Origin: Narcine bancroftii
Taxonomy: Eukaryota
Assembly (NCBI RefSeq): GCF_036971445.1
Contig: NC_091470.1
Span: forward strand, 298,406,001 to 298,470,000
Direction: 5' to 3'
Length of the DNA stretch: 64,000 nt
The notes under the pieces were generated by a model that saw only the letters and a program-made list of their open reading frames with translations, made no database searches and was not told where the DNA came from. The translations under genes and the position numbers were made by a program. Below are positions 1,631 to 24,100 of the stretch, piece by piece (position 1 is the stretch's first letter; every line of letters begins with the position of its first letter).

Positions 1631-2597
1631 TGTTTCCAGCATTTCATTTTAAGCAGTTTTATGATTTCACTGAAGGTGAAGATTTGATGGGGTTTGTCAG
1701 TTATGAATGATTTAAAGGGAAGTGATTCCTAATCTGTCTAGCAATAGAAAAGGACCTCACATTTAAGGTCATTAACAAAATATCAAAGGAGACATGAAAT
1801 GTGTCTTTTCCTTTATGCACCATTGAAACTTTCAAAAGGAAGTTTGATAAATAATTGAACAGAAGGATTTTCACATCATAATTAAAGAATAGGCTGAGGA
1901 TTATTTAGATGGCTCTGCCAAACAGCTGGTGTAGGAACAAGAGATTTATGGCTATATTAGTACTTAATCAGACTTTCAGAACAAATTATTCTGCAATTAT
2001 GATGGACGATGAATTTGTATATCCATTTGCAGACACAAACACAATTGTGTGTAAAGATGCTTTTAGCATTTGAGAATGCTTTGCTGTAAGGAGAAGGGAG
2101 TAAATCAAATGAATGTTGAATCTATTCAGCATGTTTTGAAGTTCTGTGGTGTTGTCACCACGGATGCACTTTATTAATATTGCTAAATTTGTATCTTGAA
2201 TCATTGGAATGTTTGAACAGAATCATTTTATAGGAGGGAAAAGTCATGAAAATAATTATTCAGTTTTTTTATAGAAAGTCTGTTTCCTGGTTAAGTACAA
2301 TTTTTTTTAGTCTCAGAACTAATCTTATTTACATTGTAATGCATTTATTAAAAAATTGCTATACTTCAATGGTGATGATATGAATGGCCAGTGAATGGAT
2401 TAAATGATAACATTTTCAAGTGGATGATGATCAGAAAATTTTTCAGGGAGGAAAGACGACATGGAAAATGACATCCACCTGACCAGATAGACATGCTTTT
2501 GGTTTATTACCCTTCTGAAAGACAATATTTCTGCAAAGCAGCAATTGTTTGGTGCGGTACTACAAACAAACAGGCAATTGTTAGTCTGAAGACACGC

Positions 2598-2760
2598 TGT
2601 AGATGCTTAAATCTGAAGCTAAACACAATCTGCTGGAGGAACTCAGCACATCAACCAGCGTCAGTGGGAGAAAAAGTTTCCAGCCTGAACAAAACATCAA
2701 AAAGGGGCTCTGGTTCGTTTCTCTCACTGAGTTCCTCCAGCAGATTGTGTTTAAATCCTT
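2598..2760. mobile_element. Penelope-derived hairpin element
   Basis: Perfect 27-bp inverted repeat: taaacacaatctgctggaggaactcag (2620-2646) and ctgagttcctccagcagattgtgttta (2727-2753). Confidence 0.75.
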
Positions 2761-4335
2761 AGACTGAAACAGGCTACCACTGTGGAATCAAGCTAAGTAA
2801 ATGGCTGAGCATTTCAAATGCAAACTGCTTAACAGATTGAGTGACATGATCACTGTTTTTCAGTATTTCTACTGTTGTGACTGTAACTGAGATGTATTCT
2901 TTATTTTTTAGTTTGTAAGCCTAGAGGATGACTTTGAGAGAAAAGACTGGGAGATATTTGATAGTTTCACAACAGAACAAGCCTGGATTTAAGGGTCAGC
3001 TTTTCCTTTAAAAATTCCTTTTAAAATTCATTGACTCATGGTTACCAGTTAACTGCTTATCTCAAGAAACTGACTTAACTGTGTTACAGGAAGAATGGCA
3101 TTACAATGTAAATCAACTGACAGCAGCCCATAAGATTAGTTCTGGGAGTTTGCAAAATTGTACTTAACCAGAAAACAGACTTTCTATAAAAATAATCAAA
3201 TAATACTTTTGGTGTCTTTTCCCTCCTATACAATGATTCTCTTCAAACGTTCCAATGATTCAAAATACAAATTTAGCAATATTAATAAAGTGCATCTGTG
3301 GTGACAAAACATGCCGAATGGATTCAACATTCGTTGGACTCTCTCCTTTCTCCTTATGACAAAGCATTCTCAAATGCTGAAGGCATCTTTACATATTATG
3401 CCACACCAGCTTTTAATATAGATCAAATTCTGTTTTAACAGACCATGAACCTCCCAAAAATCCATTTGCCATTCTCAAACTGTTCATCAAGTTTGCCCTT
3501 TCCTGTATAACTAAACAACAGTATTGAATGTGTCCATAAGTATATCTAAACTGAAACGTTCCACTGCACACTAACCAGTTAAAGTTACTGTGCGACATAC
3601 AATTATTCAAAGGAATAACACCATTCAGTGAAAATGGTCATTTTGGTAAATGGTACAGTGTTGAAAATGTCACTCATGTAAAAAAGATGTACTAGTTTTA
3701 CTTTAATGCCAGATTTTAAGGCATTATTTCAAGCATCTCATAGATGGTCAAGTTACAAAACAACTGAAATGTTTGAAAGTTGGCAGAAAATAAGTATTTC
3801 ATAATTAATTGATATCTGTAACAATAACTTACACCCATAAAGTCTTTTAACATCCCAATCTGCTCTGGAAGCTCACCAGGCAGAGATAATTTACAGATAA
3901 ATATTAATCAGTCTTCAGCAGACAAGCTGATCCAAAATCATTTGTATTTAAATAAAAGATTATAATTTCCTAGCAAACTTTAAACTTTATGGTTATTTTT
4001 CATCCTTAAAAAAAAGTCACAGCTCCAGGACAACCAATGCTTACTGCAAATTATCTTCAGAGGAAAACCCATTTAGTTCAAAATAAATTCTTTCAGAGTT
4101 TAATTCACTGTCAGGGGAAGCACTTTAACGATGTTGTGATAAAGAGCTCCAAAGATGAACAAAAAAAATTACTTCCTCTGGTGGAATGCAAGTTTACATT
4201 CTGGTAATGAATTGTTCTGTCAATTATTTTAACGCTGTCATTAATACTTTCACAATACAGTACTCAGGACAAAGTTCAATACTTTGTTGACTTCACTCAG
4301 ACAGAAACTGTTTATAGAGACTAAAATCCACTTAC

Positions 4336-5945: not shown

Positions 5946-6181
5946 TTGACTAAGACACAACTAGTTCTGGTGCTCAATAGTACATGAGGGGATGACAGCA
6001 GGACCGGTTGTCATTGCTGCGTCTTGTCCTCAGTATTTTTCCTTAATATCATGTTGAATGAATTGGTCAGACCAGCCTCTATGATGGTGGGGGTCATCAG
6101 AGAAAAGCATTCGAAATCATAAGCTTGATACTATTCAAAGTTCATATAAACTAACCAAAGGTCACATTAATTGGAAAAGTC

Positions 6182-7268
6182 TGCAGTGAATGGGGATTCA
6201 CTGGGAGAGTGCTGTATTGATGACTGGCCCTGCTTCCCAGCTCCACTCCCATTTATCCATATATAACCCTGGTTTCCCGCTTAAACCCAGAACTCCTCTG
6301 AATCCTACTTGTGAACCCTACCTGTTGTTGAAAGCTAATAAAAGCATTTGTTCTCCCTCCAATCATGTGAGAGCTTTTATTTACACTACAATTTCATTAG
6401 CTTTTAAAACCAGGATGGAGGTGTTACTCAAGACCCCCGGTCCTCCCATGCGGCTGAGGAGTTTGAATATTGGCTAGACTGCTTCCAGGCTTACCTGAAC
6501 GTGACTAGGGATGTCTTCCACACAGACGAACTCCAGAGGTCAACACTCATCTCCAGGGTAGGAACAAAGGGGTATGCAGTCATCAGAAATTTCCTGGCAT
6601 ACGAAGCCGCCGTCGAGGAGCTGAAAACTTGCTACATGAAGGCCCCGAGCGAGGTCCTAGCAAGGCACTAGGTCACACTACATCGCCAACGGCCTGGAGA
6701 GTCGATCCTGCTGGATCTGTGGACGCTTGCTAAGAAGTGCAGGTATGAAGCGGCTTCGGGTCACGTCCAAGAAGACGAGCAGATTTGGGACACTCTGATT
6801 GCAGGAATCCGCTTGACGTACATGAGGCAGCAATGACTTGAGTCAGGAAAGAAGGACCTTGATAGTCATATCGATCTGGCTAAATCACTGGAACAGGCCA
6901 GGCACGAAAACACGATCTCAAAGCCAGCGAACTCGCATTCTCAAATTACCTAAATTTGTAAATAGTGTATGTACTGTATATATTTGTTTCTCTCTTCTGC
7001 CGGCTTCTGATCCCATGTTCTCTTCATCCAAAGCCTCTTAATTCTGCAGGAAGGGGTGAATGCAGTGAACTGGGATTCACTGGGAGAGTGCTGTATTGAT
7101 GACTGGACACACCTCCACCTCCACCCTCATTTACAAATATATAACCCTAGTTTACCGCCTAAAGCCAGAACCTTTCTGAAGCCTACTAGTGAACCCCACC
7201 TGTTGTTGAAAGCTTATAAAAGCATTTGTTCTCCCTCCAGTCGTGTGAGAACTTTTATCTACGCCTCA
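6182..7268 (+). mobile_element. Internally deleted Ty3/Gypsy LTR retrotransposon (LTR-gag-PPT-LTR)
   Basis: Direct repeats 6182-6390 and 7061-7268 (TG..CA, TATA, AATAAA); purine tract aggaaggggtgaa before the 3' LTR; flanks aagtc/aagtg as a near 5-bp TSD. Confidence 0.92.
6415..6905 (+). pseudogene. gag: Degenerate Gypsy gag
   Basis: MEVLLK../DPRSSHAAEEFEYWLDCFQAYL..EVLARH*VTLHRQRPGES..IWDTLIAGIR..LAKSLEQA, with stops and frameshifts. Confidence 0.85.
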
Positions 7269-7879
7269 AAGTGTAGCTTTCAAAAGCTCTTTGAATTCTT
7301 AAAAGTACAAGTGGATTAATTAAGCAACAAAACAGTTCAAACAAGGTATCACACTAAGAACAAGTGTCCAACCATCAAAATAAAATTATTCTTCAGATCA
7401 AAATGGTATACAATAAATAGATTTATGAATATTACTTTCCACTAAAATCATTGCTTCCAATTCAGTTATGTATTCAGGTTACATGGTTTTAAGAACTCCT
7501 TTAAACAGATCCCACATGTTTTGCATGTTAAATCTGTCTTTAATTGCCATGAATCCACTTATTGCATTTCCAGAGGCTCCTAATAATGCACCCTCCATGC
7601 TAAATGAACTCAAATTTGTAAACTCTCATATATCCTTTTTCAAAATTATTGACCTCATTTAATTAAGCAATGATAAATCAAGCAGTTCATGAATGAGCAA
7701 AGGCATCTATTAAAGATTTAAATCTCCTCTCACCATGCTTTCAACAACAGCAGAAAACAACCAATCGAACTCCAGGATAACAAAAGCAACATTCATACTT
7801 GTGCTATACTCTTAATTAGGAAAACCAAACAACTATTTAGCTTTTTTTTCATTAATTCTAATAGCCACATTATCTCATT

Positions 7880-9334: not shown

Positions 9335-10290
9335 TTAAATGAGCTTCAATCATACCAGTGCTCAAGAGCTGAGTGACCCTCAATGACTATTGCTGAGTAG
9401 CATTCACATCTACTGTGATGAAATGCTTTGAGAGGTTTGGCCAGGGACAGAATTAATTAGCACCCAAGACATGGACCCACTGCAAATTCGTCTACTACCA
9501 CAATCGCTCCACAGCAGATGCAATCTCACTGACTCTTCAATCAGCCCTGGATCACCTGGACAACAGCAACACACACATTGGGCTGCTTTTCATCGATTAT
9601 CGCTCATCTTTCAATACCATCATCAACTCGCTGTTGGTCAGCAAGCTTCAAAACTTGAGGTTCTGCACCTCCCTCTACAATTGGAGCTTTGACTCATCGG
9701 AAGACCATGGTCAGTGCAAATCAATAATAACATCTCCTCCTCCCTGATAATCAACACAACTCAAATGCAATCTACAAATTTGCCAATTACACTATGGCTG
9801 TTGGGAGAATCACAGACAGCAATGAGGAAGTGTGCAGGAGTGAGATAGGTCAGCTAGTTGAGTGGTTTCATAACAACAACCTTGCACAGAACATTAGCAA
9901 AACTAAGGAGCCGATCGTGGACTTCAGGAAGAGGAATGTAGAATATGAACTAGTCCTCATCAAGGGGACAGCAGTGGAAAAGGTAAAAAACTACAAATTC
10001 CTGGGTGTCAACATCTCTGAAGATCCATCCTGGTGTCTCCATCTCACTGCTATGTTCAGGAAGGGAGTACAGGTGACTGAAGATGAACAACAAAATAGCT
10101 TCATCCCCTCTGCCACCAGATTTCTGAATGGATAATGAACCCATGGACTCTACCTCTCTTCCTCTTCTTTTACACTAACTCATTTATTTAGTTTAAAAAT
10201 GTAATTTATAGCAAATTTTGCAGCCATAATGCACAATAATGTTCCTGGAAAACAACAAATTCCATGACACATTTATGACAATAAATTCTG
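9335..10290 (+). mobile_element. Rex1/Babar-type LINE fragment
   Basis: Decayed RT motifs DPLQF(A)Y..STADAI..LFIDY..KTKE.IVDFRK..KFLGVNISED, and a tail ending acaataaattctga. Confidence 0.88.
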
Positions 10291-21404: not shown

Positions 21405-24100
21405 GGTAGAATCAGGTTTATTGTCATGAACATGTGTCATAAAATGTATTGCTTTACAGTAGAGTGCAGAACAAGATGCAACATTACTATCAATTCCAAT
21501 TCCATTAATTTTAAGATTTTAAGAAAGTAAATAATGAGTGCAAAAAGAGAAAAAGTAAGGTAGTGTCCTGAGGTTCATTGGACATTCAGAAAGCTGTGTT
21601 TGAAACGTTGAATGTGTGTCTTCCGGCACCTGGATCTCCTTCCTTATAGTAGCAGTGAGGAAAAAAAAAATGGTCTGGGTGGTGAGGGTCCTTGAAGATA
21701 GAAGCTGCTTTCTTGATTCAAGATTACTTTATTGTCATGCAATCAAATAGAAAATGTGATATTACACAAAATTTCCTTTAGTCTCTGGTAAGGTAGACAA
21801 AGATTTGCTCTCAGCAGAAATTGCCCAGCACCCCTTACAATCAGAGAAAGAGAAGTAAAAGAGATTCCCCCAGAATCACTGAGTGTCGATAGATTTTCCT
21901 CCTGTGCTCCTGCAGGCTCTGCAGCCACACAGCCTTCAGTCCAAATCATCAGGAATCTGAGCTCCACATGCAAACTGCTGACCTGATCAGGAAGCCCCCA
22001 GCACCCTCTACCTCCTGGTTACAATACCTGATACCCCATCAGCCAGTATCAAGTCAGTCTCCAGCAGTCCGCAGCCTGGTGAGAGTCCCTTTACCACAGA
22101 TGCCAGCAGCCCGTAGCTTGTGTGGGTTCTTTGTCTCGAGTCGCCAACAGCTCGCTGCCTGTGTGATTTTTAGCATCAGAGGTTTCACTGGTCCACCACC
22201 TTGGCCACCATCCTGTGGGTTGTCTCCTCTGGTTCTCCTTGTCAAACTGAGGAGATGGGGGTCCTCCCCATTTTCTGTGCCCTGCACCAGTTCTCTGCTT
22301 CCCCAGAGTCTGCAAACCCCTGTGGCCACTGCTATACATAGGGTCCATTATCTTGGGCCCAACCCAGCATTTAAAGCCTGCAAAGATCTGATGGTAGTTG
22401 GACACTGTGGGGTACCACTGTGTCTCCACTGTCCAGTCTCAATAGGTCCCCACCAGCAGAGGCACTGCTGTGTGAATGGGAGCGCTGCCATTTTTTTCTT
22501 TAAGTGGCACTAACTCTTAAAAATGTCTTTAATGAAGACCAATGCCCAAAATGGCACTGACTGAGTTTACCATCATCTGTAGCCTGTTCCTGTTGCATGA
22601 TTGGTGCCTCCATACCATACAGTTATGCATCCAGACAGAATGCTCTCCAAGTACACTAGTAGAATTTGCAAGTCTTTGGTGACGTAACAATTTTTCTCAT
22701 CTCCTAACAAAATATAGCAACTGATATGCTTTCTTCATGATTGCATCAACATGATGGTCCCAGGATAGATCTTCAGAGATGTTGACACCCAGGAATTTGA
22801 AGTTTATTACCCTCTCCATTGCTGACCCCTCGACTAGGAATGTTTTGAGATCTCCATGCTTCCCCTTCCTGAAGTCCATAATCATTTCCTTAGTTTTACT
22901 GATGTTGAGTGCAAGGTTGTGACACCACCCAACTAGCTGATCTATCCCACTCCTTTATGCTTCCTCATTGCGATTTGCAATTCTACTGACAACCATGGTG
23001 CTATCAGAAAATTTGTAAATGCCATTTGACTTGTGCCTAGCCACACACTCATGGGTGTAGAGTAGAGCTGTGGGATAAGCAGGCATTCTTAAAGTGCATC
23101 TCTGTTCATAGTCAATGAGGAGGAGACATTATTACTGATTTGCACTGATCGTTGTCTTCTGATGAGTAAGTCAAGCATCCAGTTGCAGAGGGAGGTGCAG
23201 TGGCCTAGGTTTTGAAGCTTACTGACCAGTTCTGTGTGATTGATGGAGTTGAAAGGTGAACTATAATTGATGATTGATGAAAAGCAGCCTGATGTAGGTA
23301 TTGCTGTTGTCTAAGTGATCCAGGGCTAAGTGTAGAGCCAGTGAGATTGCATTTGTTGTGGAATGATTGTGGCGATAGACAAATTGCAGTGTCGAGGGCT
23401 TTACTTAGGCATGAGTTAATTCTGGCCATGACCAACCTCTCAAAACATTTCAATACAGTAGATCTGAGTGCTCCTGGGTGATAGTATTGAAGCAACTCTG
23501 CTCTTCTTGACTGATGCTCTTTTGAAGCAGGTGGGAACCTCCAACTTCAGCAGTGAGAGAACGAAAATGTTTGTGACTACTCCAGCTAGTTGGTTGGCAC
23601 AGATTTTCAGTACCTTTCCAGGTATGCCTTCAGGGCCTGGTACCTTGTGAGAGTTCTGATGTTGGCCTTTGAAACTAATACCACAGGGATGCCATCTTTT
23701 GCAGGATTCTCACTAGTACTGTTGAATCCCCCTTTTCAAAGTAAGGATGAAAGGCTTTCAACTCATTCAGGAGTGAAGCATCACAGCCATTTACGATGTT
23801 AGGTTTTTCCTGTAGGATCTAATGCCCTGCAAGCCCTGCCATAGCTGTTGTGGATCTGATTCTAACTTCACACAGAGTTGCTTCTTTGCTGCTACAATAA
23901 CCTTCCAAAGGTTGTACCTGGCCTTTGTATCGAAATCTGGATCACCATTGATAGAGCCCTCATCAGGTTGAAAATACTTTAGTTCATCCACAGCTTTTGG
24001 TTAGGCTACTCATGGTATGTGTGGGCACACACTCATCTGTACAGGTCCTATGAAGTCAGTGTCAACTGTAGCACATTCTTTCAAATCTGAAGATGAATCA
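21405..24100 (-). mobile_element. Rex1/Babar LINE, decayed, interrupted by 21715-22500
   Basis: LWQGLQ, GPEGIPG, LKCFERLVM, IMDFRKG..FKFLGVNISEDLSW motifs; tail acaataaacctgattct. Confidence 0.88.
21715..22500 (-). mobile_element. Non-autonomous element with a Rex1-like 3' tail (copy 2)
   Basis: Begins aaaatggcagcgc and ends gacaataaaagtaatcttgaatc on the minus strand; homologous to 19040-19745. Confidence 0.65.

Follow-up and report, generated by a model that had tools for sequence, protein, structure and literature searches.

The window analysed here, a 64,000-nucleotide stretch of the Narcine bancroftii genome, contains a Ty3/gypsy-type retrotransposon on its forward strand at positions 6182-7268, a decayed, internally deleted copy from which pol is gone. 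The hallmarks of Ty3/gypsy LTR elements (TG...CA LTRs, a polypurine tract and a target-site duplication) are present. The 5' LTR (6182..6390, 209 bp, TG...CA) carries a TATA-like box (6260..6268) that, judged from the sequence, would place the transcription start about 30 nt downstream, near 6289. The gag ATG lies at 6415, and the remaining 5' part of gag (6415..6934), frameshifted and with stops present, maps on the full-length copies L066 and L070. It runs into a deletion junction, placed approximately at 6935..6948, where about 3.2 kb is missing, comprising the rest of gag and all of pol. A polypurine tract (7048..7060) is followed by the 3' LTR (7061..7268), which is 86% identical to the 5' LTR and has an altered poly(A) hexamer. 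The left and right 5-bp copies of the target-site duplication (6177..6181 and 7269..7273) match at 4 of 5 positions; all 7 of the young intact sister copies checked had exact 5-bp duplications. Elsewhere in the window, decayed LINE-type RT fragments at 9457-10135 and 22718-23385 form an inverted pair about 13 kb apart, and there is another inverted pair at 2050-3393.

No TGG-initiated primer-binding site (PBS) follows the 5' LTR, an absence first remarked in the earlier note on this DNA. Instead, a predicted PBS at 6392..6407, one base past the LTR end and with no tRNA match, is complementary to an arm inside the LTR at 6328..6343. This LTR arm, the predicted 3' end of a self-primer, includes the poly(A) signal AATAAA (6337-6342), and junctions in sister families (described below) would put a cut after 6343. 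The pairing proposed between the two segments was exact as described, with 14 Watson-Crick pairs, 1 G:U and 1 mismatch, and in undamaged sister copies all 16 of 16 positions pair. The helix score of 12.5 was matched by 0 of 1000 shuffled LTRs, and for the 97-nt stretch the predicted folding energy is -22.1 kcal/mol (z -3.4, reached by 0 of 200 shuffles), while z values of -2.1 and -2.4 were obtained with two alternative trims. At the 30 loci fetched with the element's 3' end, 3' LTRs share the same CA end and then give way to unrelated DNA; the second arm therefore lies outside the LTR, in the PBS slot, and nearly all of 30 5' LTR loci run directly into it. Its assignment to the LTR itself was ruled out, as it is missing from the 29 other 3' LTR loci. 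With the partner strand missing there, the helix is impossible at the 3' LTR, as the earlier note held. That note also had an outer cctg/cagg extension reach the gag start codon. The extension is predicted in families of this genome, but across the clade it is not significant (7295 of 50,000 permutations, and 18,708 of 50,000 when the related families of this genome were reduced to a single row), and on this basis an outer helix covering the AUG was rejected as a feature of the clade.

Just past the right target-site duplication, 12 bases (7274-7285) are identical to the family PBS/leader. No such match was found at the other 29 3' LTR loci, and it could be chance, a PBS remnant, or the trace of an insertion guided by PBS homology, a mode of insertion described for Tf1 in the available text of PMC11042837.

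The lineage that carries this arrangement is a compact one, with a single ORF, a length of 4-5 kb and no chromodomain. Full-length sisters are about 4 kb long, and these copies and 6 full-length homologues share the order gag-PR-RT-RNase H-IN and have no env. In a young sister family the two LTRs are identical, the 5-bp duplications are exact and the open frames are long. Single-ORF homologues of about 1200 aa occur in rays, sharks, hagfish, a tunicate and a sea cucumber, and also in cnidarians, Trichuris, a shrimp, a damselfly and a spider. None of the 6 full-length proteins matched the chromodomain (PF00385) or the Tf2-type SH3 domain (PF24626) at E values up to 0.1; both profiles were detected in fish sushi-type proteins. 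The nearest solved relative was the Ty3 RT, and RT-RNase H identity to chromovirus proteins was 29-33%, on a separate branch. In a quick RT-RNase H tree of 22 rows, among which Tf1 and sushi-ichi themselves do not figure, the clade was monophyletic with support of 100 and a long stem, and forced grouping with 3 fish and 1 fungal Tf2-like rows was rejected (p-AU 0.024). By these sequence comparisons the window element is a member of a compact animal Ty3/gypsy clade, not of Tf1/sushi. The likeness to Tf1/sushi elements drawn in the earlier note thus stands for the mechanism and falls for membership, given that there is no chromodomain and no grouping with chromoviruses.

This clade may be one of the unplaced metazoan Gypsy clades MolGy, PolGy or LGF2/LGF4, which the available texts of PMC6238403, PMC8556966 and PMC8220671 present as well-supported clades beyond the classical groups; the words 'PBS' and 'primer' are absent from the available main texts of PMC6238403 and PMC8556966. 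The clade names 'Smaug' and 'Saci-2' were followed as leads in the literature and yielded nothing, and the viral contigs searched contained no relative. Two further features of the related loci were noted. In copies L073-L087 a GC-rich tandem repeat of variable length lies in frame between gag and protease (P0008 residues ~310-440), and this repeat belongs to the young family. Loci L404 and L408 are decayed sushi-type chromovirus remnants, and a young-family copy interrupts L408.

The earlier note had asked for covariation between the LTR arm and the post-LTR sequence in other family members, and this was found: the letters differ and the pairing is kept. We looked at 100 copies in which a gag start is present: this genome supplied 74 of them, and 80 metagenome loci supplied the other 26. 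In 4 copies there was no candidate for the LTR end; the remaining 96 received scores, which came to at least 12 in 72 cases. Fully matched arms of quite different sequence included TTGAAAGCTAATAAAA (L006), TCTTTTGCTAATAAAA (L073), TGAGTCGTTTAAA (L093) and TTGATGATGATAAAA (L159), and paired arm length in the clade ranged from 13 to 19 nt. Among 19 distant families, for which own-genome representatives were chosen after their scores were known and metagenome families entered once each with failures kept (2 loci without an LTR end and near-duplicates being left out), the cognate helix scored a mean of 12.4 against 7.1 for non-cognate combinations (0 of 100,000 permutations). A score of at least 12 was reached by 12 of 19 cognate and 5 of 342 non-cognate combinations; the other 7 families scored below 12, and L108 and L131 did no better than chance. 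Over 67 distinct rows, PBS positions 1-12 were Watson-Crick paired in 60-66, and positions 4, 7, 9 and 11-14 each showed two to four Watson-Crick pair types. The helix began at LTR end +1 in 62 of the 72 helices scoring at least 12, and the LTR-end base itself was Watson-Crick paired in 2 of the 67 rows. A fixed start of this kind is a primer register.

Other Gypsy lineages of the same genome served as a control and scored 5.5-9 (17 of 20 fetched loci with a repeat pair), some of their LTR ends being imprecise. TGG was seen in several of these other lineages. Six of the Gypsy elements (L386, L389, L390, L394, L396 and L403) have the integrase before RT, an order that we take to be Gmr1-like, and in several of the six TGG begins about 5 nt past the end of the LTR, with a U5-complementary stretch after it.

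In L202 the PBS complementarity extends to 36 nt, beyond the arm. A junction pattern built from this copy had 323 exact matches in the genome, and its reversed control had 0. Each junction reads through the LTR end and one base into the antisense arm, and then into antisense upstream LTR. The plain pattern of LTR end plus PBS had 3607 matches, some of them counted twice, and the junctions come to about one in ten of the young-family LTR-PBS junctions. The 98 loci examined cover the first 100 of the 323 places listed and are not all independent events; all 98 derive from young families. For the window's old family there were 0 exact read-through junctions, and the best 2 of 48 loose matches proved to be ordinary LTRs in reverse orientation. 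On the opposite strand, a junction runs along the LTR to the last A of the arm and then into the complement of U5, which, as sequence, is the product expected from a primer that ends at the arm and is extended on U5. The junction alone cannot fix the cut site, as a template switch within the 16-nt inverted repeat gives identical letters.

The inverted copy extended to the LTR start in 71 of the 98 loci. The use of L202 as a 35-nt map of the start site was dropped once other inverted copies were seen to run through U3. In a first form, a whole LTR and one base lead into an inverted copy that runs from the end of the arm to the start of the LTR. Exact 5-bp duplications flanked 14 of the 19 such palindromes with located ends, and therefore integrase used the inverted end. 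Only 4 of the 19 had two identical palindrome arms, a finding that speaks against read fold-backs. At one palindromic LTR (L287, G000:C5:69297190-69298240) the host DNA on one side is also an inverted copy of that on the other, and this locus is either a larger palindrome or an assembly fold-back. Among the matches listed from four contig sets of one study, no contig reached 31 nt past the palindrome junction in both directions, and these sets showed no start or end sites.

In a second form, antisense internal sequence jumps, mostly without microhomology, to a U5 fragment that leads into the inverted LTR. Once 38 whole-LTR loci and another 8 that have U5 inversions are set aside, the U5 fragment began within 12 nt of the arm end (nt 192) in 35 of 52 loci, with a median at nt 189, and near the predicted transcription start in 2 of 52. 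This clustering suggests that the template itself was cut or blocked there, and the second form would fit strong-stop DNA that ended at the arm border, as if the RNA had been cut at that point. The small U5 inversions lie beside the read-through junctions of L254, L264, L273, L290, L292, L323, L324 and L325.

A third form joins a whole LTR to an inverted copy that stops early. Of 24 such events, 15 stopped at nt 136 or beyond, and a predicted transcription start lies in this region, judged from a TATA-like motif at LTR nt 109 and one resembling an initiator at nt 141. When the stop jumped into element sequence, 10 of 11 fell at nt 137-170 (a range drawn after the data had been seen), at or downstream of the predicted start. 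These positions suggest a primer of about 50 nt. A small hairpin spans the predicted start site at LTR nt 129-152 of L086 and at the corresponding position in L330; the two young families retain it although its letters differ between them. The early stops could mark pauses at that hairpin instead of the 5' end of a primer. Snap-back of plus-strand strong-stop DNA could likewise give the same border at nt 192/193 and the same cluster; since it needs a U5-end PBS copy, which is normally made from the primer, it also points to a primer with the arm sequence.

The proposal that the element primes its own reverse transcription independently of tRNA was well supported by the genomic record, through the covariation, a helix that begins at LTR end +1, the absence of a tRNA that fits and the junctions, and we regard self-priming in some form as very probable. 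A more specific model, in which the primer is a 5' fragment of about 50 nt cut in cis at the arm end, is likely. Under this model the 5' end of the RNA would fold back so that the LTR arm pairs with the 16 bases after the 5' LTR, with transcription starting, as the TATA-like and initiator-like motifs predict, some 50-55 nt upstream of the arm end. The RNA would then be cut after the final A of the arm, probably by RNase H, by analogy with Tf1. The released fragment of about 50 nt could prime minus-strand DNA without tRNA, and minus-strand strong-stop DNA would copy only about 47 nt, from U5 back to the cut. The primer presumably stays attached, and the plus strand would copy it, rewriting the PBS from the LTR arm in each cycle. 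Such recopying would account for exact covariation with no need of double mutations. Copying this end too far, or its snap-back, may then yield the palindromic or inverted insertions that make up about one in ten young-family LTR-PBS junctions.

The strongest competitor to this 5'-fragment model also has an element-derived primer, though not one cut in cis: the arm copy in the 3' R region, trimmed to the duplex, or a short LTR transcript acting in trans, from sources such as solo LTRs or early polyadenylation. Since the arm precedes the poly(A) site, it would be present at both RNA ends. The inverted copies mostly traverse U3 to the LTR start (the 71 of 98 loci above), the arm copied in L202 is one base off that of its own LTR, which suggests a second template, and several palindromes with arms of unequal length suggest the same. 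Against this, among junctions mapped on the full element, 0 of 30 pass the LTR start into the polypurine tract or internal sequence by more than 2 nt, and the U5 fragments of the second form begin at the arm end and not at the predicted cap site. On balance we consider a primer of this origin improbable.

A second alternative is that the hairpin is mainly regulatory, hiding the 5' poly(A) signal or controlling gag translation, with priming by something else. The helix of the window family encloses the whole of AATAAA, whose mean pair probability in predicted leaders is 0.73-0.99; this helix cannot form at the 3' LTR, and each of the 12 strongly paired distant arms finishes within or beside a TAA(A) run, an arm end that is conserved. 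However, a canonical hexamer (AATAAA or ATTAAA) lies in the arm in 6 of these 12 families, in the loop in 2 (L093 and L094, at 6 and 27 nt past the arm), and is absent within 150 nt in 4. Because two families carry the signal outside the stem, occlusion of the poly(A) signal is not a clade-wide invariant; silencing of the 5' poly(A) site, as earlier suggested, is possible in the window family, but it is not conserved across the clade. In the window LTR the signal is predicted to be paired within R-U5 alone as well, and the outer helix over the AUG is not conserved. Occlusion, moreover, needs no helix start at LTR end +1, predicts no junctions and leaves the element without a primer. A mainly regulatory role is therefore quite unlikely, and in those families whose arm overlaps AATAAA, its burial is probably a by-product or serves a secondary use. 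An A-rich loose end 11 nt past the arm (2 contigs, agreement 0.65) was too weak to be taken as a poly(A) site.

Finally, priming by a tRNA fragment or other host small RNA, with the LTR match incidental, is hardly credible: half-tRNA priming is known in copia-type elements (PMC6317226 and PMC10886601, in their available texts) and the tRNA set searched was partial (22 distinct host genes, 9 amino-acid types), but within that set the search urged by the earlier note found 3'-anchored matches of at most 1 nt and a best internal match of 6-7 nt, and the PBS letters vary by family, each time tracking the family's own LTR.

A PBS complementary to the element's own LTR-encoded RNA, in place of one that fits a tRNA, is a likeness between this clade and the Tf1/sushi elements as described in the available texts of PMC7175516, PMC4600332 and bioRxiv 10.1101/2022.12.06.519325. 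Tf1/Tf2 of Schizosaccharomyces pombe, Tj1 and the Tf1/sushi group also share the Ty3/gypsy domain order with the clade. In Tf1 the primer is the RNA's first 11 bases, freed by an RNase H cut between bases 11 and 12 (PMC7175516, available text); by our model the arm of the present clade probably lies 35-40 nt inside the transcript instead, and it ends in a TAAA run, often overlapping the poly(A) signal. A three-duplex 'pretzel' leader is common to Tf1/sushi chromoviruses, according to the available texts of bioRxiv 10.1101/2022.12.06.519325 and PMC4600332, whereas in our clade extra helices are predicted in single leaders, and the one outer helix examined was not conserved. About 50% of Tf1 cDNA retains a single-stranded PBS copy (PMC11042837, available text), and a primer or PBS copy kept on the cDNA end would be a further likeness to the clade.

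Outside this group, self-priming with a PBS that pairs with the element's own LTR has been predicted for the plant elements Tcn1 (gypsy) and TAR (copia) in the available text of PMC6317226, so that it had already been predicted in more than one lineage. Dictyostelid Skipper elements have neither a tRNA site nor an LTR complement (PMC5006619, available text). Tcn1 and TAR belong to other lineages and other hosts; the present clade is animal, compact, single-ORF and non-chromovirus. HIV-1, which is tRNA-primed, buries its AATAAA in a stem close to the RNA's 5' end, in a hairpin within R/U5. In our clade, by contrast, it is the PBS that supplies the second strand, and some families have no hexamer in the stem. 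To our knowledge, proof of self-primed reverse transcription exists only for fission-yeast Tf1, and in animals such priming has been inferred for chromovirus relatives. The literature searched, which did not extend to subscription journals or Repbase, contained no description of self-priming in a non-chromovirus animal Gypsy clade, and a prior note may exist. For an animal non-chromovirus clade the arrangement is not described in the available texts of PMC3601003, PMC13524379, PMC6934838, PMC10886601, PMC8556966, PMC6238403 and PMC8220671. New here are the 323 genomic junctions of young sister families.

At its widest, the reading would be that, in a pan-animal Gypsy clade, self-priming evolved independently of Tf1/sushi, with a long capped primer (about 50 nt) whose cut site marks the end of the poly(A)-signal region, the primer retained, the PBS rewritten from it in every cycle, and the primer copied through in about a tenth of events to yield palindromic LTRs inserted by integrase; we judge the chances of this whole to be evenly balanced. 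If true, a second, separate and widespread animal lineage would have lost the tRNA requirement again, with a different geometry, and would stand outside control by host tRNA fragments. The junction copies predict both cut site and primer length, which makes the question testable from genomes alone, and a vertebrate genome would carry a fossil record that maps a priming mechanism. They also represent a route by which a retrotransposon may seed hundreds of palindromes of about 430 bp in a vertebrate genome.
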